Notes: generated from the sequence alone by a model not told the origin. Shown: positions 6,985 through 50,590, counted from the first letter of the stretch. The stretch is 64,000 nucleotides of DNA from an uncultured archaeon (GCA_964441265.1 CAYYKJ010000003.1:23428-87427); one strand, 5' to 3'. A program made the numbers and translations.

Positions 6985-7066
6985 GCCTGACCGGGCATAC
7001 AATGTAATGATTTACATGGGTTCCTGTGAAGAGATATTCCTTCGCCAGTAGGTCTTGCATAATACC
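6985..7066 (-). pseudogene. cas4: Remnant of a second cas4 gene (N-terminal 27 codons, then a stop)
   Basis: The minus strand translates to MQDLLAKEYLFTGTHVNHYIVCPVRLS*. Compare the intact Cas4 KQCVFTGTQVNYYVICPTKLW. DNA identity with the 5457..5489 region is about 75%. Confidence 0.5.
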
Positions 7067-7288
7067 TCACACAAGCAATAAAAATAACCAGGCAGGAACA
7101 AACATAATCCTTTTTTGTTTAACTCTTTTTTCTTCCAACCTTTCCCGCGTTCATAACGTATTTTATTTGTATTATGGCACAAGTAACCTTTAAGTCTACT
7201 TGTAGAATCATATAAGTAAATTTTGGCGAGTTTTTGGCACGGCTGTTAGGAAAGCGGGTTTAAGACGGGATCTGATTCGGGTTTTGGG

Positions 7289-14458: not shown

Positions 14459-14460
14459 AG

Positions 14461-15270: not shown

Positions 15271-15411
15271 AATGGGATCTCGTCACGTTATTTCCTTTGA
15301 GCGTCAGCGGTTTTATGCCATTCTTTTCAGCTTTTTTAATAATTTTTCTGCTCCATCTGCTTGCATACTGAACGGTGGAATCAGAATTGGGTAACGTTAT
15401 CAACATGTTCT

Positions 15412-15779
15412 TCACTGTTTTTTAAATGATCTCAAATAAGAAAGCTGCATTTCGATTATACTTTCCCCTATGGAATCACCTTTCCTGACGTGTTCTATTA
15501 ACTCGTCCCTGCTCATCGGCTTGCCTGAAAATCCAATAGAAAGCAAAGCGTTATCGGGTATTGCCCTCAGACGGGCGATAACAAGCTCGATCTCGTCTTT
15601 CCCCATATTGATCATATTATCCCAAGTTTTATAAGTTTTTCAATTATTTTCTTTCCCTTCTCAGTTTTGTGATTGATTTCCTTATACGCGACGTTCCAGC
15701 TAACGGGTTCTCCGTCGATGACAACTACTATTTCCTGCCTTGTCTTTAATGGCAAATTAGAATAAACCCGCATGAACCT
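15412..15779 (-). CDS. Two small overlapping ORFs of 54 aa and 67 aa. The upstream ORF's stop (ATAATATGA) overlaps the downstream ATG. Function unknown.
   Basis: Upstream ORF MRVYSNLPLKTRQEIVVVIDGEPVSWNVAYKEINHKTEKGKKIIEKLIKLGII (15618..15779). Downstream ORF MINMGKDEIELVIARLRAIPDNALLSIGFSGKPMSRDELIEHVRKGDSIGESIIEMQLSYLRSFKKQ (15412..15615). Confidence 0.3.
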
Positions 15780-27482: not shown

Positions 27483-28277
27483 ATGGTCTTAGACGCCGCC
27501 CTTTTCGGGATAATCCAGGGGATTTTCGAATGGCTGCCCGTATCCAGCCAGGGCAACCTCGTGCTCCTGATGGTCTCCCTGTTCGGCTATTCCTCCGGAG
27601 AGGCGGTATCATATTCAATCTTCCTGCATACCGGAACCATGCTGGCGGCGTTGGTCTACTTGAGGAAGGACGTGAGAAATATACTGGAATCGCTGCCAAG
27701 ATACAGGGTAAACTACGAGGGAAAGAACGGCCTGGTCAGCTTCCTGATCATGGCGACCGTAATAACGGGGATAGTGGGTTATCCGATATATATTTATCTG
27801 GAAGCGAGCCCCTTCGCGGGAGAAATGTTCATAGGATTGGTAGGGGCGGCCCTCATATTCACCGGTCTGGTCCAGAGGACGGTCAAGGGGTCGGGGAGCA
27901 AGACCGGAAAAGACCTGAACCTGAAGGACACCGTCCTCCTGGGTATAGCACAGGGTCTTTCCGTCATCCCGGGGGTCTCCAGATCCGGTATAACGACATC
28001 CTCCTTCCTGTTCAGAAATTATGACTCCTCGAGCGCCCTGAAGCTCTCGTTCCTGATGAGCATACCGGCCATCATCATCGCCGAGATAGGGATGGGCCTG
28101 ACCGGGGGGATCCCTTCCATTGGGATTGCAGATGCGCTTACTGGAATTGCCTTTTCATTCGCATTCGGTATGCTGACCATTCACGCGCTGATAAGGATAG
28201 CGAGAAGGTTCGCCTTCTGGAAATTCTGCATAATACTGGGTATTATCGCTTTGGTTCCGCTCGCCTTTTACGCCTGA
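27483..28277 (+). CDS. uppP: Undecaprenyl-diphosphatase (UppP/BacA family)
   Basis: GIIQGIFEWLPVSSQGNL and PGVSRSGITT motifs. 8 TM helices. Confidence 0.75.
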   Translation: MVLDAALFGIIQGIFEWLPVSSQGNLVLLMVSLFGYSSGEAVSYSIFLHTGTMLAALVYLRKDVRNILESLPRYRVNYEGKNGLVSFLIMATVITGIVGYPIYIYLEASPFAGEMFIGLVGAALIFTGLVQRTVKGSGSKTGKDLNLKDTVLLGIAQGLSVIPGVSRSGITTSSFLFRNYDSSSALKLSFLMSIPAIIIAEIGMGLTGGIPSIGIADALTGIAFSFAFGMLTIHALIRIARRFAFWKFCIILGIIALVPLAFYA

Positions 28278-35281: not shown

Positions 35282-36106
35282 TTGTTTTATCCTAAATCTA
35301 TGCTCTACAGCAAAAAGACCTTCGAATACGAACATCCCCCGGAAGAGGCGGATGTCGTTCTTATCGGGATTCCATGGGACTTCTCCCAGACCGGCTACCC
35401 GACCAGGTACGGCCCGCTTTTCATCCGGGAGGCGATCAGGGGAATGATCGGGTATGACCCGGAGACCGGGACCAGCATATTCAAGAAATACAAATTCGCT
35501 GATCTGGGTGATGTGGAGGTTGTCCCGGGAAACTGGAAGCTCACAGAGGAGAGGATACTGGATACTGTCAAATCAGTTTTCGAAAAAAACCCGAAAATAT
35601 TCCCTGTTTTTCTCGGAGGTGACCATCTCATCACTCTGGGAATACTCAATGCAATGAAAGACACAGTGAAGGATAAAATCACGGTCGTGGATTTCGACGC
35701 CCACAGGGACCTTCTCCCGGAATTCATGGGGGAGAAATTCTCCCACGTCACCTGGATCAGCCACGCCCTGAAGCATTCCGACGTGGTCCAGATAGGGACG
35801 AGGGCATGGTCGGAGGAGGAGAACGGGATCCTCAAAGGATCGGGGATAAAGGACGGCTTCGAAAAGACCGACAGGCCAGTTTACCTGACCGTGGACATGG
35901 ACGTCTTCGATCCGGGTATCGCCCCGGAGGTCGGAACCCCGGAGCCCAATGGAATGGATCTCAAGGGTTTTCTGAAGATTCTCAGAAGGGTGGCCGGTTC
36001 AAACGTGATCGGTATGGACATAACGGAATGCGGCTCCACCGGAGTCAACTCGCCGACAGCGACGCTGGCGGCAAACATTTTCAAGAAGTTCTTCTGTTAT
36101 AAATGA
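35282..36106 (+). CDS. speB: Agmatinase (arginase/ureohydrolase family)
   Basis: GGDHLIT, DFDAHRD and VDMDVFDP Mn-binding motifs. Confidence 0.8.
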   Translation: MFYPKSMLYSKKTFEYEHPPEEADVVLIGIPWDFSQTGYPTRYGPLFIREAIRGMIGYDPETGTSIFKKYKFADLGDVEVVPGNWKLTEERILDTVKSVFEKNPKIFPVFLGGDHLITLGILNAMKDTVKDKITVVDFDAHRDLLPEFMGEKFSHVTWISHALKHSDVVQIGTRAWSEEENGILKGSGIKDGFEKTDRPVYLTVDMDVFDPGIAPEVGTPEPNGMDLKGFLKILRRVAGSNVIGMDITECGSTGVNSPTATLAANIFKKFFCYK

Positions 36107-36660: not shown

Positions 36661-37065
36661 TCATTTCTTTTTACTGAGAATTTTGCTCACCGAATAGCCC
36701 TTCTTCCTTCTTCTGAGCCTGACCACCCTGCAGATCAGTCTCCTTTTCCTGAGCTCTTCCTCAAGCCTCTTCTTGCTCATCTTCTGGTCCTTGCCGAGAA
36801 CGATCACATCGGGGTCCTCCCTCTCCACCACTTTCATGAAGTCAGTGTCGTCCCCCATCACCACCTTGTCGGCGATTCCGGTCTTCTCCAGGGCCTTCTT
36901 CCTCTTCTCCGCGGAGAACAGGGGATAGGTCTTGGTCAGCACCGCGGTCCTGTCGCTGGCCACAACCACCACCAGCTTGTCCCCGCGCTTCCTGGCCTCC
37001 TTCAGGAAGAAAAGGTGGCCCGCATGGACTATGTTGAACACACCTCCGACAAGTACCTTGGTCAT
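36661..37065 (-). CDS. Cytidylyltransferase-like nucleotidyltransferase (RibL/FAD-synthase-like)
   Basis: GGVFNIVHAGH (HxGH motif). 134 aa. Confidence 0.55.
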   Translation of the reverse strand: MTKVLVGGVFNIVHAGHLFFLKEARKRGDKLVVVVASDRTAVLTKTYPLFSAEKRKKALEKTGIADKVVMGDDTDFMKVVEREDPDVIVLGKDQKMSKKRLEEELRKRRLICRVVRLRRRKKGYSVSKILSKKK

Positions 37066-37142: not shown

Positions 37143-38081
37143 TTGATTAAAAACATTGGATACGGAAAGACTATACTTTTCGGTGAGCATTTCGTGGTTT
37201 ACGGGCTGCCAGGTATAGCAGCCGCACTGGAAGACTACAATGTTGCTAAAATCGAGAAGGGAGAAGGAAGCGGGTTCGTCCTTGTTGACAACAGGAAGGA
37301 GACCCCGGGATACAAGGAGAAGAAGAAAGATGAAATCCATAAAGCGATTGATCTCATGATAAAATTTCTGAAAATCGACACTGAAAAGAATCCGATAAAG
37401 ATCACTCTTGAGGGCACGCTCCTCTGCACGAGCGGGAACGGCTCCTCCTCTGCGATGTCGACTGCCATTGCCCGTGCCCTCTCGGAATATTTCGGCCTCG
37501 GGCTGGACGAAGACCAGATAAACGAGGTTTCCTACGAGGGAGAGAAGGCGTCCGCGGGAACGCCCTCCGGGATCGACAACTCCTGCGCCACATACGGGGG
37601 AATCATCATCTTCAAAAAGAACCTAAAAGTCGGCCCCAATTTCATCGACCAGTTCAAGATAAAGGAGCCGTTAAGTATCGTGCTCGCAAATACGGGAATA
37701 ACACAGAGCACCGCGGAGGTCGTGGGGGACGTGAGGAAGGAAAAGGAGGCGAATCCGGAGAAATACGAAAGGATATTCAGGGAATACAATGAGATGTTCG
37801 AGAGAGGAAAGAAGGCACTTGAGGATTACGACCTGGAAGAAATCGGAAAACAGATGGAAAAGAACCAGGATCTCCTCAGGGAAATCACGGTGTCCTGCCC
37901 TGAAATCGAGAAAGTGATCAAGGTTGCCAAGGCCAATGGCGCGATAGCAGCAAAACTGACCGGTACAGGAAGGGGCGGCAACGTCCTGATTCTTGTCAGG
38001 GACGGCGAAACCCAGGACAGGGTGGCGGAATCGATTGAAGGGGAAGGGTTCAAGACGGTTAAGACAAGGATAGGGGTTTAA
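37143..38081 (+). CDS. mvk: Mevalonate kinase
   Basis: GKTILFGEHFVVYG and GNGSSSAMSTAIARAL GHMP-kinase motifs. Confidence 0.8.
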   Translation: MIKNIGYGKTILFGEHFVVYGLPGIAAALEDYNVAKIEKGEGSGFVLVDNRKETPGYKEKKKDEIHKAIDLMIKFLKIDTEKNPIKITLEGTLLCTSGNGSSSAMSTAIARALSEYFGLGLDEDQINEVSYEGEKASAGTPSGIDNSCATYGGIIIFKKNLKVGPNFIDQFKIKEPLSIVLANTGITQSTAEVVGDVRKEKEANPEKYERIFREYNEMFERGKKALEDYDLEEIGKQMEKNQDLLREITVSCPEIEKVIKVAKANGAIAAKLTGTGRGGNVLILVRDGETQDRVAESIEGEGFKTVKTRIGV

Positions 38082-39193
38082 ACGACCCCTTTCTTCGCCA
38101 TTTTGACGTCCAGCAGGTGTATTCCCTGCTCTTCCCAGGAATTCCTGATTTTTCCGGCGGTTTCCTCGTCAAAGCATATCGCTATTCCGCAATCCCCTCC
38201 GCCGGCTCCGGAGAGCTTTCCTGCACCGCCGTTGTCCTTTGCGAGTTCGCTGAGTTTTCTGAGGTCATCGGTTTCGATATTGACTCCTGTTTTTTCACCC
38301 AATTCCCTCAGGTAATCCTCGTTCCTGCTCAGTAGTTCGAGTATTTTTTCCTTATTCCTCTTCTTCCAATCAGTAATCAAGTCTCTGACAAGGTTAGCGA
38401 TCTGTTCGAAGAGGCGATTGTATTCCTCCCGGTTGTCCTCTGCCCATGCATTGAGCTGCTTGACCATGGCAGAGGTGGACGCGGATTTCTTTGTCCATCC
38501 GACGAGCATTATCAGGTCGTCAGAAACTTCAAGCTCCTCGACCATGTAACTCGGCCATTCCTGTTCAGCGACCTCTTTCACCGATGCTCCGCTTTCCAGC
38601 CTCTCCATTAGCCACTTCGGATCGAAACGCTGGTAGACGAATACCCCTCCGAACGTGGAAGCGGCTACGTCGAAGGCCGAGCCGACCTTTCCCTGCGCGA
38701 AATAATGGGTCATTGCGGAGAGCTTGTATATCAGGTCCTTGGTCTCCCTCTTGGAAATGTCCCTTCCTTGGAATGCAAGGATCCCGGAAACTGCAGCCAC
38801 GACCGCCGCAGCAGAGCTCCCGAAACCGATCTTCCTCATTTCCCCGTCAACCTCTATCTGGGACATCTCGCCCCAGGAACGGATCGAAAATGGCATGAAA
38901 TCCCCCAGATATCGAAGGGTGGTCTCGATGGAACCCTTGACGAATTTCAGGTATTCCTTTTCCTCTTCGGATATATCTCTTGACCATTTGAGCTCCGATC
39001 CGTCGAACTCACCCTCCAGATTCTCGATCTTGAAATCATCCAGAGTTATCCGTATCTTATCGCTTTCCTCGACCTTTGCGTGGACCCTCTTGTCCACCGC
39101 AGTAACTATTCCGGGGTTCCCTACCTCCAGAACGCTCCATTCCCCAGAAAGGAACAGCTTCCCCGGGGCGCTTACCTCAACCATCCATAACAC
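38078..39193 (-). CDS. pmk: Phosphomevalonate kinase, ERG8/bacterial-type GHMP kinase
   Basis: APGKLFLSGEWSVLE, GFGSSAAAVVAAV, LVGWTKKSASTSAMV and KLSGAGGGDCGIAICFD match bacterial PMK block for block. Confidence 0.75.
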   Translation of the reverse strand: MLWMVEVSAPGKLFLSGEWSVLEVGNPGIVTAVDKRVHAKVEESDKIRITLDDFKIENLEGEFDGSELKWSRDISEEEKEYLKFVKGSIETTLRYLGDFMPFSIRSWGEMSQIEVDGEMRKIGFGSSAAAVVAAVSGILAFQGRDISKRETKDLIYKLSAMTHYFAQGKVGSAFDVAASTFGGVFVYQRFDPKWLMERLESGASVKEVAEQEWPSYMVEELEVSDDLIMLVGWTKKSASTSAMVKQLNAWAEDNREEYNRLFEQIANLVRDLITDWKKRNKEKILELLSRNEDYLRELGEKTGVNIETDDLRKLSELAKDNGGAGKLSGAGGGDCGIAICFDEETAGKIRNSWEEQGIHLLDVKMAKKGVV

Positions 39194-39196
39194 CTC

Positions 39197-39724
39197 CTAT
39201 TTACGGCCCTTTGCTTTCAAGTATTCATTCAATGATCTCTCGAAATGCTCTGTCAGCTTCATCTCACCGGATTTCTCCTTTTCGAGCAGTTCTTCCATGG
39301 GGATGAATTTCGCCTCGTCCGCCTCCTTCCTGTCAACCCTGAAAGGTCCCTCTTGCCTCGCTTCCATCACAGCGACGAATTCCCTCTCGTCGAACGTCTC
39401 TAACATGTATTTGGTCACGAAAATCGGATTGATCTCGACTCCCAGTTCCTCCCTGCACTCCTTTTCCGTCGCCTGTTCATAAGTATCCCCGGACTTGACG
39501 TGGCCTGCGGCAGAGGACTGCCAGTAACCGGGCCGCTGCTTTCTCTTCATGGACCTCCTCTGCACGAATATCTCACCCTTTGAATTGAATACGAGCACAT
39601 GGATCTTACGGTGGATTTTCTTTTTTCCTGTATGGGCCTCGCCCCTCCTCATTTTACCGATCACTTCATCATTCTCATCCACCACGTCGAACATCTCTTC
39701 CGGGTTGTCAACCTTCTCTTTCAT
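39197..39724 (-). CDS. Nudix hydrolase
   Basis: Nudix box GHVKSGDTYEQATEKECREELGV. No IDI-1 catalytic Cys is present. Confidence 0.65.
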   Translation of the reverse strand: MKEKVDNPEEMFDVVDENDEVIGKMRRGEAHTGKKKIHRKIHVLVFNSKGEIFVQRRSMKRKQRPGYWQSSAAGHVKSGDTYEQATEKECREELGVEINPIFVTKYMLETFDEREFVAVMEARQEGPFRVDRKEADEAKFIPMEELLEKEKSGEMKLTEHFERSLNEYLKAKGRK

Positions 39725-40464
39725 ATCAATTCCATCAACTGCTGCTTTAAATTATTCAGGGAAAGCAAACGGATTCCTATCTCCTTGGCCTTCATTCGCT
39801 GCTCTTCAGTCGAATAACCCCAGTCCGCGAACAGAATGTTGGCGCCTGAATTGAGGACGGATTCGATCTGGAAGAAAACATCATCGATGAAGTAAATGTT
39901 CTCCATTGGGACGTTGAATCTCTTTGAAAACTCACTCAGGTGTTCGTTCTTGTCGGTAGAAAAGTCCTTGTCCAGGACCCTTTCTTCGGGCATCTTCACG
40001 CCGTGCTTTTCCAAGAATAAGATTGTCGCTTCCCGGTTCTTTGCCGTGCTTATGGCGACCACACACCTTTTCTGAAGGCTCTTAATCAGATCGATCAGAC
40101 AGGGATAAACCTTTATAAGACTAAATAATCTGGAATAGTTCTTTTCTGTGATCATCTTCCTCGTTTCGAAAAATATGTCCCGGAACTCCTCTGCTTTCCC
40201 CCCTGATTCCGAAATCAAAAGATTGAGATCCTTTGCTCCCATGACCCGAAAATCTTTTCCTTCCAGTATGGTTTTAATTAAAACATAAATATCCTGGGCC
40301 ATCCTCACGTAGGGTCTTGCATCAATCAATTTTTGGTAAAAATCCTTATCTACTGAAAGGTCTCTGCCCTCCATTCTGTCGAAGGCTTCCAGTGCCACAT
40401 GATATGTCTCGTGCTTGGTATCAGCTATAACACCGTCAAAATCGAAAACGAACATCTTCATCAC
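39721..40464 (-). CDS. HAD-superfamily hydrolase
   Basis: Motif I FVFDFDGVIADT, and FIDDV toward the C-terminus. Confidence 0.65.
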   Translation of the reverse strand: MMKMFVFDFDGVIADTKHETYHVALEAFDRMEGRDLSVDKDFYQKLIDARPYVRMAQDIYVLIKTILEGKDFRVMGAKDLNLLISESGGKAEEFRDIFFETRKMITEKNYSRLFSLIKVYPCLIDLIKSLQKRCVVAISTAKNREATILFLEKHGVKMPEERVLDKDFSTDKNEHLSEFSKRFNVPMENIYFIDDVFFQIESVLNSGANILFADWGYSTEEQRMKAKEIGIRLLSLNNLKQQLMELI

Positions 40465-40470
40465 ACCACT

Positions 40471-41463
40471 TCAGAAAAGGTGTTCATCCGTCATTTTCGC
40501 CGGCCCGCCGACCTTGCAGATGTGGGTGTCCTCCACTACCCCGAGGTCTTTCAGCCGCTTCTCGATTTCTTCCGAATCCTTGGACCAGCAAAGCACCTTT
40601 ACCTGGGGACCTCCATCTATGGTGAAATAGCATTCCAGACCACCGTCCCTCCATTCCATTACCGAATGTATTATCTTTATCGTGGAGGGGTTCCAGTATA
40701 TTATAGGCGGTGTCGTGGTCATCATTACCGCGTGCATCTTCAGGCAGTTCATTTCAACCGTTTCCCCGAGAAGCTTGAAATCCTTCTCGGTGATCGCCTT
40801 CCTCACGTTTTCGATGTCCTTCCCGCACTCTTCTACCCATTTCCGGTAATATGGGCAGTTATCCACGCTCATGGCCATACCGGCCCTGCTCTTGATTTTC
40901 TTCTCCTCCTTGGTTGTCACCGCAACGACCATGTCGAGGTCCCAGTGATCAGGAGAAGCGATCTGCTCCGCAAAGGAGTCGGTACCGTCCTCCTTCTCCC
41001 CCCGGTGCCACCATACGAAGCCGCCTGCTATGGACCTGGATGCGGATCCCGATCCCCTTCTGGAGAGCATGGACAGCTCTTTCTCGCCGAGATCGAGGCC
41101 GGCGGCCTTCGCACCTGCCATGCTCAGGGCAGCAAATCCTGAAGCGGAAGATGCCAGCCCGGCGGCCGTGGGAAAATTATTCACCGACATCACCTTGGCC
41201 TTCTCGGATATTCCTGCCATCTCCCTGATCAGGTCGATGTGCTTGATCACCTTGGAGAGCTCCTTTCCCTCTGTCAGCTCCTCCCCGTTCAGAATTACAA
41301 TGTCCTCATCATACTTTGAATCGAATTCCACCGTGGTGGTGGTTGTCATCCCGTCCAGAGTCATGGACGTGCTCCCGGCCTGCGGGAGCATGAGCTTCTT
41401 GTCTCTCTTGCCCCAATATTTGGTGAGGGCAATGTTAGCATTGGCAATGGCTGTCGCCTTCAT
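40471..41463 (-). CDS. mvaD: Diphosphomevalonate decarboxylase family protein
   Basis: NIALTKYWGKRD, AAGLASSASGFAAL and RRGSGSASRS motifs. Confidence 0.75.
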   Translation of the reverse strand: MKATAIANANIALTKYWGKRDKKLMLPQAGSTSMTLDGMTTTTTVEFDSKYDEDIVILNGEELTEGKELSKVIKHIDLIREMAGISEKAKVMSVNNFPTAAGLASSASGFAALSMAGAKAAGLDLGEKELSMLSRRGSGSASRSIAGGFVWWHRGEKEDGTDSFAEQIASPDHWDLDMVVAVTTKEEKKIKSRAGMAMSVDNCPYYRKWVEECGKDIENVRKAITEKDFKLLGETVEMNCLKMHAVMMTTTPPIIYWNPSTIKIIHSVMEWRDGGLECYFTIDGGPQVKVLCWSKDSEEIEKRLKDLGVVEDTHICKVGGPAKMTDEHLF

Positions 41464-41518
41464 GGAAAATCACCTCAGGATTTTATAATCTAAGAATTGG
41501 AAGGGAAATATAAAAAGA

Positions 41519-42706
41519 CTAGAGTGCCTCTTTCATCAAACCGTCAAGAATCTTAACGTCTTTAATTGTTTCGCCGCTATTGTATTGCTCTTCAAATGTC
41601 TTCCTATGTCTATCGGCCTCTTTCGGATCTATTATTGTGACATTATGCGCGATCTTGCTTTTTTGTTCCTTGTCCCTCACGGAATAAACCACACCTATAT
41701 CTCCGACTAGTGTCGCCTTTCTCATCCTCGGGTCCTGTTCGCCCAGTCTGATCTCGAAACTCTTTCCCAGATCGATATAACCTCTGAGTATGTCTTTTGC
41801 CGCCTCCAGCAGCTGTGGGTATGCCTGCAGATTTTTTGCGGTTCCCTTCCTGTTCGCTGAATATCTCCGCTTTCTTTCGGGATCCAGATCTATAGCATGC
41901 CTGAGCATCTCGAAATAGGTCGGCCGGAGAAGATTTTTCTTCAGTATATCCACGCTGTCCTTGTACTTCAACGGATCGGCCTCGGTAGGAAGAATTACTC
42001 CGGGAGACGTGGATGTCACATCCACAGTCTTGTTTGAAGGGAACAAATGAAATATCCCGAAAAGTTCATATGCCTGGGTAGAACCGACCGCGGGATAAGC
42101 GGATTCGATCTGCGCCGCATCTTCACCGATTTCACCGAGCAGTCTGAACCTTTCAATGAGCTCTGCGGGATCTTTCAGAATGTCCGACGCCTGTGCAAAA
42201 TAGATATCCCGGAGCTCTTTCAGCTCATCCGGTGAGTATTGAAGCAAATTGGGATCAGTGTAAATAGCCAACTCTTCAGTATCTGTCGGATAATTTTCGA
42301 TATAACCGTCAATCATTCTCGGTATCGTGAACATTCTCGCTAAAATGTGATTGAAAGGTCCGATGATTTTTTTCCCGTCCTCTGCTCCAATCATTTTGAA
42401 GAACCCGGTCTTTAGCTTATCCTTGGGCGCTTCAACACAGGAATCAATCATGTCTCTGTGATCAGTAACATCGTGCATGCTGTCAGGCACGGGCATGCGC
42501 AGAGGATAAACATCTTGTTTCTCCATATAATACTGAGAAAGCCTTCCCGCTTCCTCCACAATTGAATCACTATACAAACCGGAAAAGAGTTCCGTGACTT
42601 TATCCCCGAATTTTTTCATCAGCATCACTTCTTTTGCGTTATTATTCGGTGAAAGACATTTATCTCTTCTGGGCGAATCCAGGAGGAAAATTATCATCCA
42701 AAACAT
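41519..42706 (-). CDS. Hypothetical protein embedded in the mevalonate cluster. The start may be the internal MLMKKFGDK.
   Basis: 395-aa ORF with no recognisable motif. Confidence 0.35.
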   Translation of the reverse strand: MFWMIIFLLDSPRRDKCLSPNNNAKEVMLMKKFGDKVTELFSGLYSDSIVEEAGRLSQYYMEKQDVYPLRMPVPDSMHDVTDHRDMIDSCVEAPKDKLKTGFFKMIGAEDGKKIIGPFNHILARMFTIPRMIDGYIENYPTDTEELAIYTDPNLLQYSPDELKELRDIYFAQASDILKDPAELIERFRLLGEIGEDAAQIESAYPAVGSTQAYELFGIFHLFPSNKTVDVTSTSPGVILPTEADPLKYKDSVDILKKNLLRPTYFEMLRHAIDLDPERKRRYSANRKGTAKNLQAYPQLLEAAKDILRGYIDLGKSFEIRLGEQDPRMRKATLVGDIGVVYSVRDKEQKSKIAHNVTIIDPKEADRHRKTFEEQYNSGETIKDVKILDGLMKEAL

Positions 42707-42758
42707 TTAAATACCCATTAAATAACTACTATTAGATAACAAAATAATTAGTGATTAT

Positions 42759-43898
42759 ATGACATTGTACATACCAAAATTCGATGTAAAGGGGATTCCA
42801 GCAGCTTTCCCTTTATACAGGGTTCCGCTTCAAGAAACCGGTAAATGGGGAATCAGATATGATAACGCAAGTGATCTGAAGAAGCTTCTGGAGATGGACA
42901 GGAGTCTTTACAAAAAGGAATGGGAAATGGGGAAAGGTGCCCAGATGGACAATGTGACAAAGGCTTCTGAAGAGGCCGGGTTCGGACCCATGACAAAGGT
43001 CCTGCAGAAGGCAGGCGGTGCGCTGTGTTCATATTTATGTGATAAGATCGACGGTGAAATCGTAATACTGGACAACGGAGCGGGTCCCGGTCAGTCAGCG
43101 AGGAAAGTAGCTGATTCACTGACCAATAGGGAAAAATCAAGGGTCAAGATCCTTCTTCTGGACCCATCGGGAGAGAAGCTCGCTGAAGCGAAAAGGGCAT
43201 TGGGAACCGAAATAGAATATGAAGCTCTTCCCCCATGCAGTGATTACGAGGCTCTGGAAAAAACCAATTTAAAACCGGGGGAAGTCGACATCGTGCTCAA
43301 CGTGGCCGGGGGGAAACATCACAACATGCTGGCCCCATGGGGTTTGTACAAAGACATATTGAAACAAAACGGTTACTTTGTCGACATAGACTGGAACACC
43401 GACTGCTGGAGGCCGGCGATAGTATACGACATGATGGATTCCTGGGAGTGGGAAGACAAGGAGGAAATCCTGAAAGGATTCGCTGACATGTTCATACCTG
43501 AACTGACGGGAAACAAAGAGATGGATCTGGAACTGGCAAGAAAAAGGGATTACTCCGAGAACGAACTGGACGCACAGGCAGTGAAGGACATGATTTCTTT
43601 CTGGACCGGTTACGGACGGTTTGAACTGAAGAGCGGTGCCCAGGGAAAACACGCAATCTTCTGGCCGGAAGGCCACATGAACAGCAAAAAGATATTGGAA
43701 TATATGACTACAGCAGGGCTTAACCCCAATTCCGATGATTTGAAAAGAATGAAATCCGAGGGGCTGGAGATAGACTACAGCGTCATAAGGGGCGGGAGTT
43801 TGAAAGAGGGAAAGACGAAAATAAAGGATTTCCCCCACAACATATGTCCTGACACATCGCTCTGGTCTATAAACATCGGTCAGAAAGAATCGAAATGA
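42759..43898 (+). CDS. Putative class I SAM-dependent methyltransferase-like protein
   Basis: VILDNGAGPGQSA (motif I-like) and DIVLNVAGGKHH. Confidence 0.45.
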   Translation: MTLYIPKFDVKGIPAAFPLYRVPLQETGKWGIRYDNASDLKKLLEMDRSLYKKEWEMGKGAQMDNVTKASEEAGFGPMTKVLQKAGGALCSYLCDKIDGEIVILDNGAGPGQSARKVADSLTNREKSRVKILLLDPSGEKLAEAKRALGTEIEYEALPPCSDYEALEKTNLKPGEVDIVLNVAGGKHHNMLAPWGLYKDILKQNGYFVDIDWNTDCWRPAIVYDMMDSWEWEDKEEILKGFADMFIPELTGNKEMDLELARKRDYSENELDAQAVKDMISFWTGYGRFELKSGAQGKHAIFWPEGHMNSKKILEYMTTAGLNPNSDDLKRMKSEGLEIDYSVIRGGSLKEGKTKIKDFPHNICPDTSLWSINIGQKESK

Positions 43899-43946
43899 AA
43901 TATCCCCTTCCAGCTTTTTATATGATCCGTTTCAATACTTATCATT

Positions 43947-44957
43947 ATGCAGGGAAAGATCACCGGTTCCAGGAAGGCTGATCACATAGACATCTGCCTC
44001 GGGAAGGACGTTGAGTACTCCAAGAGCAACGGCTTCGGGAGGTATGACCTTCCCCACAGGGCTCTGCCCGAGGTTGATCTTCAGGAGATAGACTGCTCGT
44101 GCAAGTTCTTCGGGAAGAAGCTGGGCTATCCATTGTTTGTGACTGGGATGACCGGAGGGACCGACCGGGCACTGGAGATAAACAGGAACATAGCCAGGGC
44201 AGCGGAGGTGCTGGGGATCGGCTTCGGAGTGGGTTCCCAGAGGGCAATGCTGGAGAATCCCTCGCTGACAAGAACTTACAAGGTCCGCAAGCTGGCGCCC
44301 AACGTCCTTTTTCTGGGCAACATAGGGGCGGGCCAGCTCCAAGAATATGACCCGGGGAAGATAAAGCTCATGGTGGAGAAGATCGAGGCGGACGGGCTGG
44401 CCCTGCACCTGAACCCCGCGCAGGAGATGGCCCAGGACGAGGGGGATTATTCATGGTCGGGGGTGCTGGACATGATAAAGAAACTTACCAGGTCAGTTGA
44501 TTTCCCGGTGATGGCGAAGGAGGTCGGGACGGGAATATCGGGAGACGTCGCCAGGATGCTTGCGGGTGCCGGCGTGAAAGCCATAGACGTGTCCGGGGCA
44601 GGCGGGACCTCCTGGATAAAGGTGGACTCCTACAGGAGCGGAAGGGAGATGGATTCCTTTTTGGAATGGGGCATCCCGACCGCGGAGGCCCTGAAAGATA
44701 CGGTTTCCAAGGTAAGGGTCCCGGTGATGGCGAGCGGGGGCATAAGGAACGGCATAGAGGCGGCGAAGGCCATTGCTATGGGCGCCTCTCTCGCGGGTTT
44801 CGCGCTCCCGGTGCTGGAGCCCGCCACGAGGGGATGGGAAGCGGTGAAGGAGAGGATGGAAAGGATCATCTTCGAGCTGAAGACTGCCATGTTCCTTTCG
44901 GGGGCGAAAAACCTCGCGGAGCTGCGAAGAAACAGGCTAACAGAAAGATATAAGTGA
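43947..44957 (+). CDS. fni: Isopentenyl-diphosphate isomerase type 2 (FMN-dependent)
   Basis: KADHIDICL...FVTGMTGG...MASGGIRNGIEAAKAIAMGA TIM-barrel IDI-2 pattern. Confidence 0.8.
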   Translation: MQGKITGSRKADHIDICLGKDVEYSKSNGFGRYDLPHRALPEVDLQEIDCSCKFFGKKLGYPLFVTGMTGGTDRALEINRNIARAAEVLGIGFGVGSQRAMLENPSLTRTYKVRKLAPNVLFLGNIGAGQLQEYDPGKIKLMVEKIEADGLALHLNPAQEMAQDEGDYSWSGVLDMIKKLTRSVDFPVMAKEVGTGISGDVARMLAGAGVKAIDVSGAGGTSWIKVDSYRSGREMDSFLEWGIPTAEALKDTVSKVRVPVMASGGIRNGIEAAKAIAMGASLAGFALPVLEPATRGWEAVKERMERIIFELKTAMFLSGAKNLAELRRNRLTERYK

Positions 44958-44976: not shown

Positions 44977-45600
44977 ATGGTCAACAAGGAGCTTTTTGAC
45001 TACATAAAATCCCAGCTTGAGTCAGGGCAGAATCCGGACGAGGTCAGGAAGATCCTCCTCCAGGCGGGATGGACTTCAAACGACATCAGAGAAGCCGCCG
45101 AAACCGTCAGGAAGGTAATAGAGAACCAGAGAATCGCCAGGGAGAAAATGGCAGAGCAGAAGAAATCCGGGGAGAAGCGTCCTTCAGAAAGTAATTACAC
45201 ATATGGGCTTCTGCTTTCCATGCTGGGAGGCATGCTGATACTCATAAACGGCGTATACACCTCGGTCTTCAGGACAATGTCAATGGATTTCTTCTCAAGC
45301 ATCGGAATGGGTTTCTACCTGTTCTCAAACGAGGCCTCCGCCAACACGATTTTCGGGATAACAGGGGCGGTGATAGGGCTGATAATAATGGCTGTGAACA
45401 TCCATAAAATGAAACCGGGGGGTTCGCAGGGCGTGCACAGGAGGATAATAGACAGGATAGAGAACCTGCTGGAAGGCAGGACCGGATTCAGCGGATTGAT
45501 CACCTTCCTGCTATCGGTGCTGGGGTTGCTCTTCGGAGGACTTTACATCGGGCCGGCCATAGGGGTTATCGGCGGAATTCTCCGGTACCTCGGGAAATAA
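44977..45600 (+). CDS. Membrane protein of unknown function
   Basis: Soluble N-terminal part of 60 aa followed by four TM helices. Confidence 0.4.
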   Translation: MVNKELFDYIKSQLESGQNPDEVRKILLQAGWTSNDIREAAETVRKVIENQRIAREKMAEQKKSGEKRPSESNYTYGLLLSMLGGMLILINGVYTSVFRTMSMDFFSSIGMGFYLFSNEASANTIFGITGAVIGLIIMAVNIHKMKPGGSQGVHRRIIDRIENLLEGRTGFSGLITFLLSVLGLLFGGLYIGPAIGVIGGILRYLGK

Positions 45601-45875
45601 AATCTAGAGCGGATTCTCTATTTTGTCCCTGAAATATTCGCATTTGCCGCAGTAACTGCCGTCTCCCAGATTAGCAAGCACTCCCCGGGGGCAGGGCGAA
45701 AAAGTCTTCAATCCGCTCAGGGCTATAACATCCGGACTGCTGCAGAATATCCCGTCTGTGGGAAAATCCTCCCCGTGTTCTTTCGGGCGGTTTCCCCATA
45801 CGCATCTTTTATACGTCTGTGCCTGCGCTCCCATGGATTAGAATAGTGAGGAAAATCTTATAAGCGAGAGCGGGG

Positions 45876-46271
45876 TCATCTCATGCTGAAAGAATACCTT
45901 CCGGGAGCCCATTTACCTCCCGAGGCCCGGTAGCCACATTTGGGGCATTTAGCTCCGGATACGAGCTTACGGCCCTTCAGGTTCTTGGTGTAGAATCTTC
46001 GGAGGCCGTGGCCGCAGGAGGGGCATTTTTTTCGGGACTTTCCTTTTTTCGTGCGGATGATGACCCTGATTCCGCTGGCTTTCAGGCAGATTTTCCTTAT
46101 CCTGGAACCGGAAATGGTATATCTCGGCTCGACCTTCTTGAGGTCGGCATTCACCATCTCGCCCAGCTTCTTCTGTGAATCCACTTCCCTCTTCTTCAGG
46201 ATCTTTCTGAGAATGAAGACCACCACGTCCTCCTTGGGACGCTTGGAACCCTTAACTTTCGCCCTGGGCAT
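45876..46271 (-). CDS. Basic zinc-ribbon protein (putative nucleic-acid binding)
   Basis: C-terminal CPSCGH...CPKCGY ribbon. Lys/Arg-rich. Confidence 0.4.
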   Translation of the reverse strand: MPRAKVKGSKRPKEDVVVFILRKILKKREVDSQKKLGEMVNADLKKVEPRYTISGSRIRKICLKASGIRVIIRTKKGKSRKKCPSCGHGLRRFYTKNLKGRKLVSGAKCPKCGYRASGGKWAPGRYSFSMR

Positions 46272-46308
46272 GATTAAGATTTAAATCGCGGATTTTTAAG
46301 TAAAATTT

Positions 46309-46611
46309 ATGGGCTTTGATTCGGAAGTGATGTTCCTTGTCAAGAAAATACCCAGGGGGAAGGTCACCACATACAAGGAGATGGGCAGGGCGCTCGGCAG
46401 CAGGGGCTACCGCTCGGTGGGGCAGGCGCTGAAAAGGAACCCGAGGCCGGTGGTGATACCCTGCCACAGGGTCGTTAATTCAGACGGCAGTATAGGGGGG
46501 TACCACGGAAAATCTGACAGCGATGAAAAGGAGAGAATCCTCAGGGAGGAAGGGGTGGAGATAAGACAGGGAAAAATAAACCTCAAAAAACACTTCTTCC
46601 GGATGGTTTAG
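46309..46611 (+). CDS. ogt: MGMT-family (O6-alkylguanine-DNA alkyltransferase C-domain) protein
   Basis: Active-site IPCHRVV motif. 100 aa. Confidence 0.65.
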   Translation: MGFDSEVMFLVKKIPRGKVTTYKEMGRALGSRGYRSVGQALKRNPRPVVIPCHRVVNSDGSIGGYHGKSDSDEKERILREEGVEIRQGKINLKKHFFRMV

Positions 46612-47758: not shown

Positions 47759-50590
47759 TTACTTCTTTCCTCTCTTTTTCTTTCCCGATTTTTTCCCGGA
47801 TTTCTTCTTCTTTGTGGTACCTTTCTTGCCAGCGGATTTTGTTTTCCCGGTCTTCTCCCCGGTTTTACTGCCGGCCTTCTTTCCGGAAGACTTCTTTTTC
47901 TCGGATTTTGTCCTGGCTGATTTCTCTCTCTTGGACTTCTTTGTTTTCTTCCTGCCGGAGGACTTGGGTTCCCCGGCCTTCTTTTTCGTTTTCTTTTCAG
48001 TTTTTTTCTTCTTGCTTCTCTTTCCGGAGCCCGGCCCCTTCATACCCTTCATTCCGCTTATCTTCCCGCTTTCCTCCGGTTTCTCCCTTTCTTCTCTGGG
48101 AATCTGCTCCCCGGGGAACCTTCCGATCAGCCTGAAAGCCCCTGTCCCCAGGGGTATGACCTGATTCATTATTATGTTCTCCACCTGCCCTCGAAGGGAA
48201 TCCCTTTCACCGTTTATTGAGGCGTTGATTATGTGCTTTTTTGTCTCCTCAAAAGACATCCTGGCGATCACAGAGGGCTTGCTCCCTGCGATTCCGTACC
48301 TCCCAATCCCCATTATATTACCCGAATACGTCATCAGGTCGGCCAGAAGGGAGACGTATCTCGGGTCGACCCCCAGCCCCTGCTCCTCTATGGTGTGGAC
48401 GGCCTCCTGTATTATCGCATTCCTGGCCGCCTCTATGCCGAGAACACTACATATCTCAAATATGTTGTTGCAGGTGGTCTTTGTCGGATCCACCCCTTCC
48501 ACAGCCAGTATCTTCTTGAGGTTGGAACCGAGGGTGCTTATTATCCATCCCTCATCCTCTTTGCTCACAATAACGTGGGAAATGCCCTTTACTCCCTCTA
48601 TATGGGACTCCATGACCTTGTATTTCAGCTTGTGGAGGTTGATGTTCTCGGTCTTCTTGGAGGTCACGGATATCTCGGAACCCTGGACATCGACATCCAC
48701 GTTCTTTATCTTTATGTGCTTCTTCAGGTCTTCCACGTCCAGATTGAAATCCCTGAGCTTTTTCTTGTTGAGCTTGAGCCTTATGACCAGGTTTATGAGA
48801 TCTATAACGTCACCCACCACGAAGTCCCTGAGCTTGACCTCCTTTATTTTCTTTGCTACCTTGAGCGCCTTTTCCTCGCTCTGGTAGTCCTTCATAAGGT
48901 GTATGGTCATGCTGGGCGTTTCCGGCTTTTTCTTCGCGTCGTATATCTCGATTAGACGTGGCAGACCCAGGGTTACCTGTATGCCTGCGACCCCTGCGAA
49001 ATGGTAAGTCCGCATCGTATTGTGGGTTACGATCCCGTCGAAAGTAGTGAACGTTTCCGTCCCCTCCACGGTGAAATCATATACATAATCATTGGACGGC
49101 CTTACGCGGGAAATCTCGGTTATCTTATCCCAGACCACGTCCGAATTGAGCATTGTCTTCATGACCTTCAGTTCATTTTCTATGTCGATGCCCTTTGATT
49201 CGGAGAGTCTTTCAAAAATACCCACGTATTTGGCAAGGGTCGATCTTCCTATTCTCTGTCTCCCGGTGAAATTGTTGACATATCTCGTGGGGTAGCCCAG
49301 CTTTTTCGCCGTCCTTAGGAACAAATCCCCGAATCCTCCCACCATGTCGGTGAAGTCCTGGAATTTACCATTCTTCCCAAAAAACCCGCATAGCCTCTCG
49401 AGTCTCTCCTTCTTTTCGTCAACGGAAAATCCTATATTCTCCCTGAACAGACCGGCATATTTATAGGGTATCGCCAAATTGAACTGTTTGTCAATGCTCT
49501 TGTTTGCAAATATCCCGAACCTTGTCAGCAAGAGCTTGATACCGTCAATGAGCTCCTCCGAATTGGACGATGCCCTTATCATCCCCCTGTCCACTGAGAC
49601 ATTGCCGTCCCCGTCGAAATACCCCTTCAGCAGCCCGGACACGAACTCCTTCTTTGCGCCATATGAGAAATATGGAACCCTTTTCGAGCCCGAGCCGGTA
49701 CCGCAAACCGCCTTCATCAGTCTGCTCAGGATAATGGAGTTTATCCTTATGTCATGTCCCTTTGAGAAACCGCGGAAATTGTCATATTCATTGAAGGTGA
49801 ATCCGTGCGATCTGGCGAACTTCCTGATTTTTGAAAGGAATTCACTGTCTACGTTGGAGAAGGAAACGTAATATTTCGTGGATTGACCTTCGGAAAGGTA
49901 TGCCCCGAAAATCCATCCCAGGGACTTGTCAAGGTCGATTTTTTCGGGGAGGGGCTTCCTAATGAAAGAATCGGTTTCCCCTATGGCATCCTTCAAATCA
50001 AGGGACTGGAGACAATTTTCAGACAGAAATTTCATAGAGGGAATCCTGCTACCGATTTTCAGTTGTTTTCCAGATATCGGGACTATTTTGTTGTTTTCCC
50101 TGACAACGAAAGAATGGGAATCGGTGGCCGTTATTTCTCTTCCTGAAAGGGTTCTGATTTTTATCAGTTCTTCGGGTGCCTTGTGCCTGCTGCATGAAGA
50201 AACCCTTTTCCACTCAATCTTCTCCTTGCCAGTTATGCTGGGGACAAAAACTTCCCCATCAGAAAAATCGAATATCTCCCAGCCGTTCTCTTCTTTCTTC
50301 CCGAAGACATCCATAACACTGTCCACGAATTCCCCGATTTTAGGTGTTATTATGCATCCATTATTCTTCAGTATTACCCTTTCGTTGTGATCTAGGGACA
50401 TCTGGGTGGCCGGCTCGGATAGCGACTGGGCCGCAACGACGCCCATGGCCTCCTCCGGATAATAGAGCGCCTTGTTGTAAAGCACCCTGACCCTTCCGAT
50501 CAGTTCTGCGGAGTCCATGCCATTCTCTTTGGCGTATTCCTCCACTTCCTTCCTTATCTTCAAAGGCAGTTCTCTCATTTTATCATCCAT
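47759..50590 (-). CDS. rpoA2: DNA-directed RNA polymerase subunit A'' carrying an intein and a C-terminal Lys-rich tail
   Basis: Exteins ...VVAAQSLSEPATQM | TMRTYHFAGVAGIQVTLGLPRLIEI... match conserved A'' blocks. The 943 aa total breaks down to a normal A'' of about 360 aa, a 460-aa intein, and a tail of about 120 aa. Confidence 0.9.
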   Translation of the reverse strand: MDDKMRELPLKIRKEVEEYAKENGMDSAELIGRVRVLYNKALYYPEEAMGVVAAQSLSEPATQMSLDHNERVILKNNGCIITPKIGEFVDSVMDVFGKKEENGWEIFDFSDGEVFVPSITGKEKIEWKRVSSCSRHKAPEELIKIRTLSGREITATDSHSFVVRENNKIVPISGKQLKIGSRIPSMKFLSENCLQSLDLKDAIGETDSFIRKPLPEKIDLDKSLGWIFGAYLSEGQSTKYYVSFSNVDSEFLSKIRKFARSHGFTFNEYDNFRGFSKGHDIRINSIILSRLMKAVCGTGSGSKRVPYFSYGAKKEFVSGLLKGYFDGDGNVSVDRGMIRASSNSEELIDGIKLLLTRFGIFANKSIDKQFNLAIPYKYAGLFRENIGFSVDEKKERLERLCGFFGKNGKFQDFTDMVGGFGDLFLRTAKKLGYPTRYVNNFTGRQRIGRSTLAKYVGIFERLSESKGIDIENELKVMKTMLNSDVVWDKITEISRVRPSNDYVYDFTVEGTETFTTFDGIVTHNTMRTYHFAGVAGIQVTLGLPRLIEIYDAKKKPETPSMTIHLMKDYQSEEKALKVAKKIKEVKLRDFVVGDVIDLINLVIRLKLNKKKLRDFNLDVEDLKKHIKIKNVDVDVQGSEISVTSKKTENINLHKLKYKVMESHIEGVKGISHVIVSKEDEGWIISTLGSNLKKILAVEGVDPTKTTCNNIFEICSVLGIEAARNAIIQEAVHTIEEQGLGVDPRYVSLLADLMTYSGNIMGIGRYGIAGSKPSVIARMSFEETKKHIINASINGERDSLRGQVENIIMNQVIPLGTGAFRLIGRFPGEQIPREEREKPEESGKISGMKGMKGPGSGKRSKKKKTEKKTKKKAGEPKSSGRKKTKKSKREKSARTKSEKKKSSGKKAGSKTGEKTGKTKSAGKKGTTKKKKSGKKSGKKKRGKK
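49019..50398 (-). mobile_element. Intein with a LAGLIDADG homing-endonuclease domain inserted in rpoA''
   Basis: Begins SLDHNERVIL right after TQM and ends ...FDGIVTHN followed by the extein T. Two LAGLIDADG motifs (LGWIFGAYLSEGQS and LLKGYFDGDGNVS). Confidence 0.8.

Follow-up and report, generated by a model that had tools for sequence, protein, structure and literature searches.

A putative cassette-swap site for the lower mevalonate pathway and its accompanying accessory genes in a DPANN archaeon

We analyzed a mevalonate gene cluster in a 64,000-nucleotide stretch of DNA from an uncultured archaeon (GCA_964441265.1 CAYYKJ010000003.1:23428-87427), hereafter the window; the analysis covered this 64 kb out of a 164-kb contig. 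The cluster encodes four candidate enzymes of the lower pathway, mevalonate kinase (MVK), phosphomevalonate kinase (PMK), mevalonate diphosphate decarboxylase (MVD, or MDD) and type 2 isopentenyl diphosphate isomerase (IDI-2), and four extra proteins, namely a Nudix hydrolase, a HAD-family phosphatase, an orphan protein (UNK) and a protein resembling S-adenosylmethionine (SAM)-dependent methyltransferases (MT379). We conclude that this is probably a working lower mevalonate locus of a DPANN archaeon related to Aenigmatarchaeota, at which the enzyme cassette has been swapped and a route-independent accessory module serves the end of the pathway where isopentenyl diphosphate (IPP) and dimethylallyl diphosphate (DMAPP) arise. 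In the version found here, MVK would phosphorylate mevalonate, the bacterial-type PMK would make mevalonate diphosphate, MDD would produce IPP, and IDI-2 would convert it into DMAPP. In close relatives the same flanks hold the archaeal route (AcnX, UbiD, UbiX and isopentenyl phosphate kinase, IPK) or a Thermoplasma-type route (M3K-like, mevalonate-3-phosphate 5-kinase-like and MBD-like proteins with IPK), and the four extra genes would form a module that remains at the locus with any of the routes. What we regard as new is this cassette-swap locus and its route-independent accessory module with an orphan family; the classical route itself is already known from archaea.

Three routes at one chromosomal site

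The surroundings of UNK were compared in 14 distinct contigs of at least 6 kb that carry the gene, plus the window, with annotation by Pfam, NCBIfam and cross-tblastn; the relatives' contigs are designated L002 to L022. In all 14 contigs UNK (47 to 64% identity) has a mevalonate-pathway gene at most about 3 kb away, usually as its direct neighbor, and the gene order and strand around UNK vary among loci. Classical loci, with PMK and MVD, are the window, L008/L009, L010, L017 and L020, the last being a fragment that has PMK and MVK without MVD. Archaeal-type loci, with the large and small AcnX subunits, UbiD, UbiX and IPK, are L002, L003/L006, L005/L021, L022, L007, L012 and L018. L004/L016 are of the Thermoplasma type: they carry an M3K-like gene (best match NF040848), an MBD-like gene (best match NF040847), an IPK that passes its model and a gene of the 2-phosphoglycerate kinase family that matches mevalonate-3-phosphate 5-kinase, and their cluster also holds UNK, IDI-2, HAD, Nudix and an MT379 homologue. 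L015 shows IPK-UNK-IDI2 only, on the available sequence. This trio forms a tight co-directional triplet, with gaps of 28 to 45 nucleotides (nt), in L004, L007, L012 and L015.

The closest relative found, L018, is of the archaeal type. Its proteins are 91.6% (TFB), 81% (aIF5A), 67.5% (MVK), 67% (agmatinase), 63% (MT379) and 61% (UNK) identical to those of the window, and it has the same anchors, with genes for a tRNA methyltransferase, TFB, aIF5A, agmatinase and a cytidylyltransferase-like protein on one side and genes for a 207-aa protein, a 131-aa protein and an MGMT-like protein on the other. Between UNK and MT379 it carries UbiD-AcnXL-AcnXS-UbiX-IPK, and its MVK adjoins UNK. At the position of the window's IDI-2 it has a true IDI-1 gene (1842-2420, plus strand; 180 bits versus a cut-off of 127, catalytic Cys present). 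L010 also has an IDI-1 gene (2073-2585, minus strand). Since IDI-1 occurs in L018 and L010 and IDI-2 in the window, the type of isomerase, like the route, has been swapped within the lineage.

Agmatinase and the cytidylyltransferase-like gene also flank L004/L016 (56 to 58% identity), as they do L018 (56 to 67%), and on the other side of the Thermoplasma-type set lie IDI-2, a 129-aa gene and an MGMT-like gene. Homologues of the right-hand anchors flank the cluster in L004/L016, L007, L012, L015 and L018, and L015 links IPK-UNK-IDI2 to L32e, L6 and RpoA'', as in the window. The shared flanking genes show these loci to be orthologous chromosomal sites, and in-place replacement of the lower-pathway cassette is the simplest reading of the sequences. 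A neighbor-joining tree of UNK had two clades: one (95% bootstrap) held four archaeal-type loci, and in the other (76%) the three route types were mixed, with L004 (Thermoplasma-type) and L007 (archaeal-type) as sisters (97%); the finer branching was unresolved. This mixing implies at least two changes of route inside the UNK-bearing lineage.

Compared with the archaeal-type clusters (L018, L002, L003, L005, L007 and L012), the window shares position, flanks, MVK, UNK, MT379 and the HAD/Nudix partners, and it has PMK and MVD instead of AcnX, UbiD, UbiX and IPK. With the Thermoplasma-type L004/L016 it has in common the anchor genes, UNK, IDI-2, HAD, Nudix and an MT379 homologue; it differs in lacking M3K-like and 2-phosphoglycerate-kinase-like genes and in having a decarboxylase that retains the catalytic Asp as well as the residues for binding ATP and diphosphate. 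Archaeal and early-cell biology is concerned with how the four mevalonate routes arose from one another, and here one narrow lineage shows three of them, with both isomerase types, between the same flanks; the window and L018 (TFB 92% identical) are close enough for a step-by-step reconstruction of a swap.

Two further observations concern these loci. The small cytidylyltransferase-like gene adjoins the mevalonate cluster in the window, L004/L016 and L018, that is, beside three route types, and may be a synteny anchor only. Two families recur between Nudix and MVK in archaeal-type loci, as at L002 13182-13754 and 12501-13145, with paralogues in L003, L005 and L022; one (about 190 aa) matches no family and frequently occurs as a pair of copies, and the other (about 214 aa) has a weak NUDIX match.

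Identity of the pathway enzymes in the window

The earlier note on this DNA, made from the sequence alone, had described a complete kinase-kinase-decarboxylase set with a PMK of bacterial type, and the description held: the set is genuine and bacterial-like, and MVK, PMK, MVD and IDI-2 all pass curated equivalog models. MVK scored 223.9 bits on TIGR00549 (cut-off 163), matched Pfam GHMP_kinases_N and _C, and is 54 to 55% identical to the proteins of L003, L005 and L008, besides the 67.5% to L018. PMK scored 246 bits on TIGR01220, the model for "Gram-positive" PMK (cut-off 165.7), and 112 and 109 bits on the ERG8 and Sulfolobus-type Arch_PMK models, both far under their cut-offs. Each of the bacterial-type motif blocks that had been quoted for it was located (APGK at 9-12, SGEW at 16-19, GFGSS at 123-127, VGWTK at 231-235 and SGAGGGD at 328-334), and the GHMP motifs are intact. 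Its best solved relatives are Listeria Lin0012 (3k17, 172 bits) and the Streptococcus pneumoniae PMK (110 bits); orthologues are 62 to 65% identical in L008, L017 and L020 and 47% in L010. IDI-2 scored 384.8 bits on the curated equivalog model TIGR02151 (cut-off 281.3) and is 58% identical to the UNK-adjoining IDI-2 of L004, L007 and L012.

The decarboxylase scored 309.7 bits on the MVD model TIGR01240 (cut-off 171.35) and stayed under the cut-offs of the rival models for phosphomevalonate decarboxylase (PMD; NF040704, 215 versus 475), MBD (NF040847, 67.9 versus 560) and M3K (NF040848, 43.3 versus 440). Its scores were 241 to 291 bits against Anaerolinea and Firmicute chains versus 166 to 176 bits against eukaryotic and Sulfolobus/Saccharolobus chains. 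The nearest solved structure by sequence is the PMD of Anaerolinea thermophila (6n0x/6n0y/6n0z; 286 to 291 bits for 6n0x and 6n0z, 47% identity), so a residue-by-residue check was needed. This kinship, together with the frequent confusion of PMD and DMD in automated annotation (PMC11052028), would suit a protein that is really a PMD (or an M3K or MBD), in which case the cluster would be a haloarchaeal- or Thermoplasma-type route mislabelled as classical.

PMD and MDD were told apart by the sequence difference between 6n0x and 6n0z and by published contacts. In MDDs the terminal phosphate is contacted by Tyr, Lys, Ser, Ser and Ser; in MPDs Leu, Met or Tyr replaces the Lys, and Thr or a polar residue replaces the last Ser (Dellas et al., PMC3857490 Table 4). 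Tyr16 and Lys19 of the window protein lie in KYWGK (15-19) and its Ser138 and Ser140 in GSGSA (137-141); it also has Ser192-Arg193 (KSR) and Met196, whereas the Anaerolinea PMD has Asn at the position of Lys19, Ser-Thr at that of Ser192-Arg193 and His at that of Met196. 6n0z is an engineered, MDD-like double mutant of that PMD: relative to wild-type 6n0x, the N of KYWGxRD has become K and the H of G[HM]A has become M. The window protein shares both of these mutant residues, K and M, and matches 6n0z with a higher score than 6n0x. The diphosphate-contacting positions are thus all of the MDD type, with Lys19 rather than Asn or Leu, Ser192-Arg193 rather than Ser-Thr, and Met196 rather than His.

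With regard to the other two enzymes, loss of the catalytic Asp makes members of this family kinases and is characteristic of M3K, and MBD has lost the residue used in phosphotransfer from ATP (PMC9254496). The window protein keeps Asp283 (FTIDGGP), which excludes M3K and where the M3K-like protein of L004 has Gly, and it keeps the P-loop PTAAGLASS, which differs in the MBD-like protein of L004; the L004 M3K-like protein also lacks KYWGK, and both L004 proteins look quite unlike the window's decarboxylase. No homologues of IPK, AcnX, UbiD, UbiX or M3K were found within the 64 kb by tblastn with the relatives' proteins. Judged by these residues, the decarboxylase is of the diphosphate-specific MDD type, and a mislabelled route is highly improbable. 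The classical assignment, which the earlier note had made conditional on the absence of M3K- and MBD-type active-site substitutions, stands at the level of sequence because the residues found are MDD-type, the array includes a model-passing PMK two genes from the decarboxylase, and IPK, AcnX, UbiD and UbiX are missing from the window.

By their scores, PMK and MVD are bacterial-like, neither Sulfolobus- nor eukaryote-like. A recent horizontal import of the two genes was considered and is unsupported: their GC contents at third codon positions (GC3; 0.63 for PMK and 0.71 for MVD) resemble those of neighboring genes (0.63 to 0.80), and orthologues occur on four other related contigs (47 to 65% identity), so their acquisition appears to be old within the lineage. 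A motif search of the window yielded nothing convincing for HMG-CoA reductase, HMG-CoA synthase or thiolase, and the upper pathway is accordingly placed outside it.

The classical route is established in Sulfolobales and found in a few Micrarchaeota, PMVK and DPMD being largely absent from Aenigmarchaeota (Hoshino and Gaucher, PMC6107057); it has also been described in Asgard archaea and "several DPANN MAGs" (metagenome-assembled genomes), in a study that reports Thermoplasma-type genes in Aenigmatarchaeota and, besides, mixed gene sets (Zhu et al., PMC11052028). The full set had been called unusual for an archaeon; unusual it is, and with these published cases not unprecedented. Relative to classical operons of Gram-positive bacteria and to the archaeal cases, the window is alike in MVK, PMK, MVD and an IPP isomerase, with PMK and MVD best on bacterial models and structures, and differs in that the isomerase is IDI-2, four conserved genes are interleaved, and close relatives carry other routes at the locus. 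Neither PMC6107057 nor PMC11052028 mentions Nudix or other accessory genes in archaeal mevalonate clusters.

The accessory genes

The accessory genes occur with archaeal- and Thermoplasma-type clusters as well as with the classical one, and so have no exclusive tie to the classical pathway. The conservation of the Nudix, HAD and unknown genes was followed through the clusters of relatives, where they proved syntenic beside all three routes, and we therefore rejected the suggestion that they merely hitch-hike. Since the routes share only their mevalonate input and their IPP/DMAPP output, a role at the product end fits better than one on phosphomevalonate intermediates, and the accessory genes most likely act on what the routes share, chiefly IPP and DMAPP.

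It is unlikely, in our judgment, that the four genes are passengers whose shared position was simply inherited among related genomes and that have no isoprenoid role. Such an account would be in keeping with the confinement of UNK to a very small lineage (24 relatives among 5.8 billion protein clusters and 29 representatives among 1.84 billion proteins by exhaustive profile search; 3 of 185,579 species genomes, one labelled Candidatus Aenigmatarchaeota), with the synteny of the flanking housekeeping genes, with a GC3 of UNK, HAD and MT379 that is lower than that of the pathway genes, and with loci in which UNK is frameshifted (L016 and L017) or missing (L014). Yet in each of the 14 informative contigs UNK is still found among mevalonate genes, at no more than 47 to 64% identity, even as order, strand and neighbors vary and the pathway enzymes are exchanged; it forms the tight IPK-UNK-IDI2 triplet in four loci, and HAD and Nudix form a fusion in L010 and an ATGA overlap in the window. 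Moreover, non-orthologous types of Nudix recur in the clusters, which points to selection for function rather than to inherited position.

As separate observations, the GC3 of UNK, MT379 and HAD is 0.51 to 0.56, below that of both the pathway enzymes and the flanking genes (0.63 to 0.80), and UNK is split into two open reading frames (ORFs) in L016 (10001-11108; 287 + 87 aa) and L017 (10001-11130; 250 + 131 aa), where an assembly frameshift or real gene decay is possible; the near-identical L004 copy is intact.

UNK had been described as a 395-aa protein of unknown function. The family is still unmatched in profile searches, and the length has to be revised, since the ORF is over-extended: 23 of 23 homologues begin about 29 codons downstream, which puts the true start near 42619-42625 and the length at about 366 aa. 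No match was obtained in Pfam, NCBIfam, PDB sequences or PADLOC, including searches with a profile widened by remote relatives, and the 24 family members lack any Pfam match even at E values up to 10. Conserved blocks are STxAYExFGIFHLFPSN, TSTSPGVILPTEADP, NLLRPTYFEML, VVYSVRD and KIAHNVT, and Arg316 is invariant even in the remotest relatives. A confident AlphaFold2 model built with the family alignment (predicted local distance difference test, pLDDT, 91.6; predicted template modeling score, pTM, 0.91) has a helical N-terminal half of about 170 residues and an alpha/beta C-terminal half. In a Foldseek search against the PDB, residues about 175-367 matched the phospholipase D (PLD)-like fold of TrmBL2, PssA (a PLD-type phosphatidylserine synthase), Nuc and the TrmB effector domain, with E values of 4e-5 to 7e-3 and a template modeling score of 0.67 normalized to Nuc. 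The HxKxxxxD (HKD) motif was not found in the family alignment, which has conserved His residues in FHLFPSN and KIAHNVT. UNK thus differs from the PLD superfamily (Nuc, PssA) and from TrmB in lacking HxKxxxxD, sequence similarity and the TrmB DNA-binding domain and in having the extra helical N-terminal domain. UNK accordingly represents an orphan family, with a predicted PLD-like scaffold that bears non-canonical residues.

What UNK does may be read in two ways, which we hold to be about equally likely and neither of them probable on its own. The one we opt for is that it could be a soluble enzyme that binds or turns over a phosphate ester by non-canonical chemistry on its PLD-like fold, as suggested by the predicted scaffold, the invariant blocks rich in Ser, Thr, Arg and His, and an enzyme-like rate of evolution. 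Alternatively, it could be a ligand-sensing or regulatory subunit that, like the TrmB effector-binding domain, reports the level of a pathway metabolite. TrmBL2 (E value of 4e-5) and the TrmB sugar-binding domain are indeed the best structural matches, the HKD motif is absent, and a sensor would suit a place beside any route; against this stand the lack of any winged-helix or TrmB match in Pfam, an N-terminal half without a helix-turn-helix-like pattern of secondary structure, the enzyme-like conservation of hydroxyl-, Arg- and His-rich blocks (STxAYExFGxFHL...TSTSPGxILPTEADP, SVRD and KIAHN), and an evolution about as slow as that of the neighboring enzymes.

Several other candidates for UNK were dismissed. 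A regulator of the full TrmB type does not fit, as the PF01978 winged helix is missing and the N-terminal secondary structure is not winged-helix-like. A restriction-modification or defense pair of UNK with the methyltransferase is at odds with an empty PADLOC result, the lack of a DNA-methyltransferase motif and the stable site beside mevalonate genes. The 342-aa protein in UNK's position in L014 is not a homologue (hhalign probability 0.3%). The most divergent homologue, P0024, lies on a 2-kb contig whose only other gene encodes a pyridoxal phosphate-binding protein, so its context is uninformative.

The Nudix gene matched Pfam NUDIX (65.6 bits versus 21.1) and fell below the IDI-1 models (NF002995, 90.2 versus 127; TIGR02150, 57.2 versus 105.8), unlike the true IDI-1 genes of L018 (180 bits) and L010 (161 bits). 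YfcD and the Methanosarcina Nudix model NF041653 (47 bits) gave weaker matches, and every curated cut-off was missed. The protein aligns to IDI-1 along its N-terminal half, and an alignment with the Escherichia coli and Salmonella enzymes shows Ala at the place of the catalytic Cys (E. coli Cys67), with "SSAAGH" versus "NSVCGH" in E. coli. This replacement and the low scores rule out IDI-1, as the earlier note had argued from the missing Cys. The Nudix box is nearly intact (G74-x5-D80-x7-K88-E89-C-R-E92-E93-L-G95-V96), with two conservative changes (E to D and R to K) relative to GX5EX7REUXEEXGU; since the box glutamates (KECREELG) are kept, unlike in IDI-1, the protein should be a hydrolase. 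The identification of its neighbor as a HAD phosphatase was likewise confirmed by HAD_2 (45.8 bits versus 23.8) and Hydrolase (37.5 bits) matches and by motif I, FDFDGVIADT, with the nucleophile Asp at the N terminus.

The stop codon of HAD overlaps the start codon of Nudix (ATGA, 4 nt), and in L010 the two are fused into a single 408-aa protein (6520-7746, minus strand), HAD followed by an IDI/YfcD-like Nudix, in the same order as in the window. The Nudix half of this fusion is the closest relative of the window's Nudix among the collected loci (42.5% identity). An IDI-like Nudix adjoins HAD and UNK in L002 and L003, UNK in L005 and L022, and HAD in L014; MutT-like Nudix genes, non-orthologous to the IDI-like ones, occur in the clusters of L004/L016, L008/9 and L017. 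Some small proteins joined to the Nudix/HAD group by single linkage (113 to 165 aa in L007, L012 and L015; 271 aa in L004; 342 aa in L014) gained no confirmation from Pfam and were not counted.

Plant NUDX1 and NUDX3 are Nudix hydrolases that act on IPP and DMAPP, and Methanosarcina mazei has an IPP/DMAPP-specific Nudix. Conversion of DMAPP and IPP to the monophosphates by Nudix enzymes has been reported (PMC12359138). By analogy, the Nudix enzyme of the window may remove the terminal phosphate of IPP or DMAPP and the translationally coupled HAD the second one, a stepwise dephosphorylation that would make the pair an overflow or homeostasis valve or a supplier of monophosphates; in relatives with IPK, it could form a Nudix/IPK cycle. 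Salvage or regulation of phosphorylated isoprenoid intermediates, as proposed in the earlier note, may therefore be considered a reasonable candidate role for this pair. With the IPP/DMAPP Nudix hydrolases (E. coli NudB/F/I/J) and IDI-1 the Nudix protein shares the fold, the nearest sequence relatives being IDI-1, YfcD and DR0079, and it has the box glutamates and the association with isoprenoid genes; it differs in the missing catalytic Cys and in being coupled to HAD (fused in one relative).

The Nudix, with or without HAD, could instead make dimethylallyl phosphate (DMAP) for UbiX, which would use it for the prenylated flavin mononucleotide of a UbiD-type decarboxylase. Such a role has been proposed for E. 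coli NudJ and for the M. mazei enzyme. An IDI-like Nudix shares its cluster with UbiD in L002, L003, L005, L014 and L022, and with UbiX too except in L014, the window's Nudix weakly matches the Methanosarcina model (47 bits), and the step from DMAPP to DMAP by Nudix enzymes is in the literature (PMC12359138). However, the window and the classical loci L008, L010 and L017 keep a Nudix, yet UbiX and UbiD were not seen on the available sequence, and a monophosphatase coupled or fused to the Nudix would break down the very DMAP on which UbiX depends. Supply of UbiX is consequently a rather doubtful explanation, and stepwise dephosphorylation of IPP and DMAPP is the reading we prefer.

Two other kinds of phosphohydrolase genes were observed. 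HD-domain phosphohydrolase genes, a third kind beside Nudix and HAD, recur in the clusters between UbiD and AcnX in archaeal-type loci (L002 7899-8483, L003 6930-7511, L005 7927-8508 and L022 5924-6508) and between HAD and PMK in a classical one (L017 7045-7671). A homologue of BacA/UppP-type undecaprenyl-diphosphatase (27483-28277, plus strand; 167.5 bits), another prenyl-diphosphate phosphatase, lies 10 kb upstream in the window.

MT379 had been called SAM-methyltransferase-like. For the window protein alone the match is weak (Methyltransf_25, 18.3 bits versus a cut-off of 27), and it is the family that sustains the assignment: GAGxGxS (LDNGAGPGQS) and LLDPS are conserved in all homologues, there are conserved HH and DW motifs, the L020 homologue passes Methyltransf_11 (26.6 versus 21.2), and the L016 homologue has a recorded Methyltransf_31 match. 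The structural model is of low confidence (pLDDT 59), and Foldseek matched it with probability 1.0 to many class I methyltransferases; matches to small-molecule methyltransferases, geranyl diphosphate C-methyltransferase among them, are generic. Relatives occur in eight loci (window, L018, L020, where the gene is directly upstream of UNK, L003, L005, L022, L014 and L004). MT379 might methylate a small molecule of isoprenoid-precursor metabolism, a suggestion that we make with low confidence.

A bolder proposal, tentative and in our estimate somewhat short of an even chance, is that UNK, possibly with MT379, is an unrecognized dedicated component of isoprenoid-precursor metabolism, a PLD-like, non-HKD enzyme or sensor at the IPP/DMAPP node for three routes, and that the locus is a natural site of cassette replacement.

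A number of points weigh against a route-independent module at a swapped locus. The roles of the proteins are predictions from their genes. The HKD motif by which catalytic PLD enzymes are defined is missing from UNK, whose best structural match (the TrmB family) has no catalytic function, and the structural model of MT379 is of low confidence. L014 has other accessory genes and not UNK, the Nudix genes of the clusters are not all orthologous (IDI-like versus MutT-like), and none was recognized on L007, L012 or L015. All loci come from one narrow lineage, and their co-localization may partly be inherited gene order. Finally, IPK, UbiX/UbiD or a second route could sit in the genome outside the 64 kb.

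The constant companions of the locus (the coupled Nudix-HAD pair, the divergent methyltransferase and the PLD-like protein of an orphan family) point to an unstudied handling of isoprenoid precursors. A natural control or overflow module for IPP and DMAPP would interest terpenoid engineers, as IPP toxicity limits yields.

Layout of the locus and other features of the window

All eight genes were found as first described, and an independent assembly of the contig gives the same calls (Table 1). UNK is the first gene of a tight minus-strand array, UNK-MVD-HAD-Nudix-PMK, with successive gaps of 55, about 6 to 15, -4 (the ATGA overlap) and about 3 to 12 nt. MVK and PMK are convergent, their 3' ends overlapping by 4 nt, and MT379 and IDI-2 diverge from UNK over a 133-nt A+T-rich spacer that contains TTTAAATA and AAATAA stretches and is presumed from its sequence to be the site of two divergent promoters. 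The surroundings are archaeal, with genes for TFB, aIF5A, agmatinase, RNA polymerase subunits, L6, L32e, topoisomerase VI and an archaeal-type phosphoenolpyruvate carboxylase.

Table 1. Genes and other features at the mevalonate locus (window coordinates)
Feature	Position	Strand	Length	Basis and remarks
MVK	37143-38081	+	312 aa	TIGR00549, GHMP_kinases_N/_C
PMK, Gram-positive type	38078-39193	-	368 aa from the likely ATG at 39184	TIGR01220
IDI-1-like Nudix hydrolase	39197-39724	-	175 aa	Pfam NUDIX
HAD-family phosphatase	39721-40464	-	244-247 aa	HAD_2, Hydrolase
MVD/MDD	40471-41463	-	330 aa	TIGR01240
UNK orphan protein	41519-42625 (ORF to 42706)	-	about 366 aa	Without Pfam/NCBIfam match
A+T-rich divergent intergenic region, UNK/MT379	42626-42758	.		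Read from sequence
MT379, class I SAM methyltransferase-like	42759-43898	+	379 aa	Family motifs
IDI-2	43947-44957	+	336 aa	TIGR02151
Left anchor: agmatinase	35282-36106	+		Pfam Arginase; pathway membership not claimed
Left anchor: small cytidylyltransferase-like gene	36661-37065	-	134 aa	Pfam CTP_transf_like; pathway membership not claimed
Right anchors: membrane protein, second protein, MGMT-like DNA_binding_1 gene	44977-46611		207 aa, 131 aa (first two)	Pathway membership not claimed

Elsewhere in the window, four large ORFs have no Pfam match at E values up to 1e-4 (2-1879, minus strand, 626 aa; 14369-15415, minus, 348 aa; 16293-17429, minus, 378 aa; 21023-22072, plus, 349 aa). CRISPR-Cas remnants at 3113-8506 (minus strand) comprise Cas4, a C-terminal helicase fragment of Cas3 and a Cas1 of 139 aa, truncated so that it spans just the first 125 of the 283 model positions. 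Two archaeal AAA ATPase genes (ATPase_2/DUF234 and AAA_14/DUF4143) lie among these remnants, and neither CRISPR repeats nor an array were found anywhere in the window. The gene for RNA polymerase A'' (47759-50590, minus strand; 943-aa product) contains an intein with a LAGLIDADG homing endonuclease (Intein_splicing and LAGLIDADG_3 matches), and the L015 orthologue aligns with it in two separate segments (residues 7-66 and 522-903), as an intein-free copy would.

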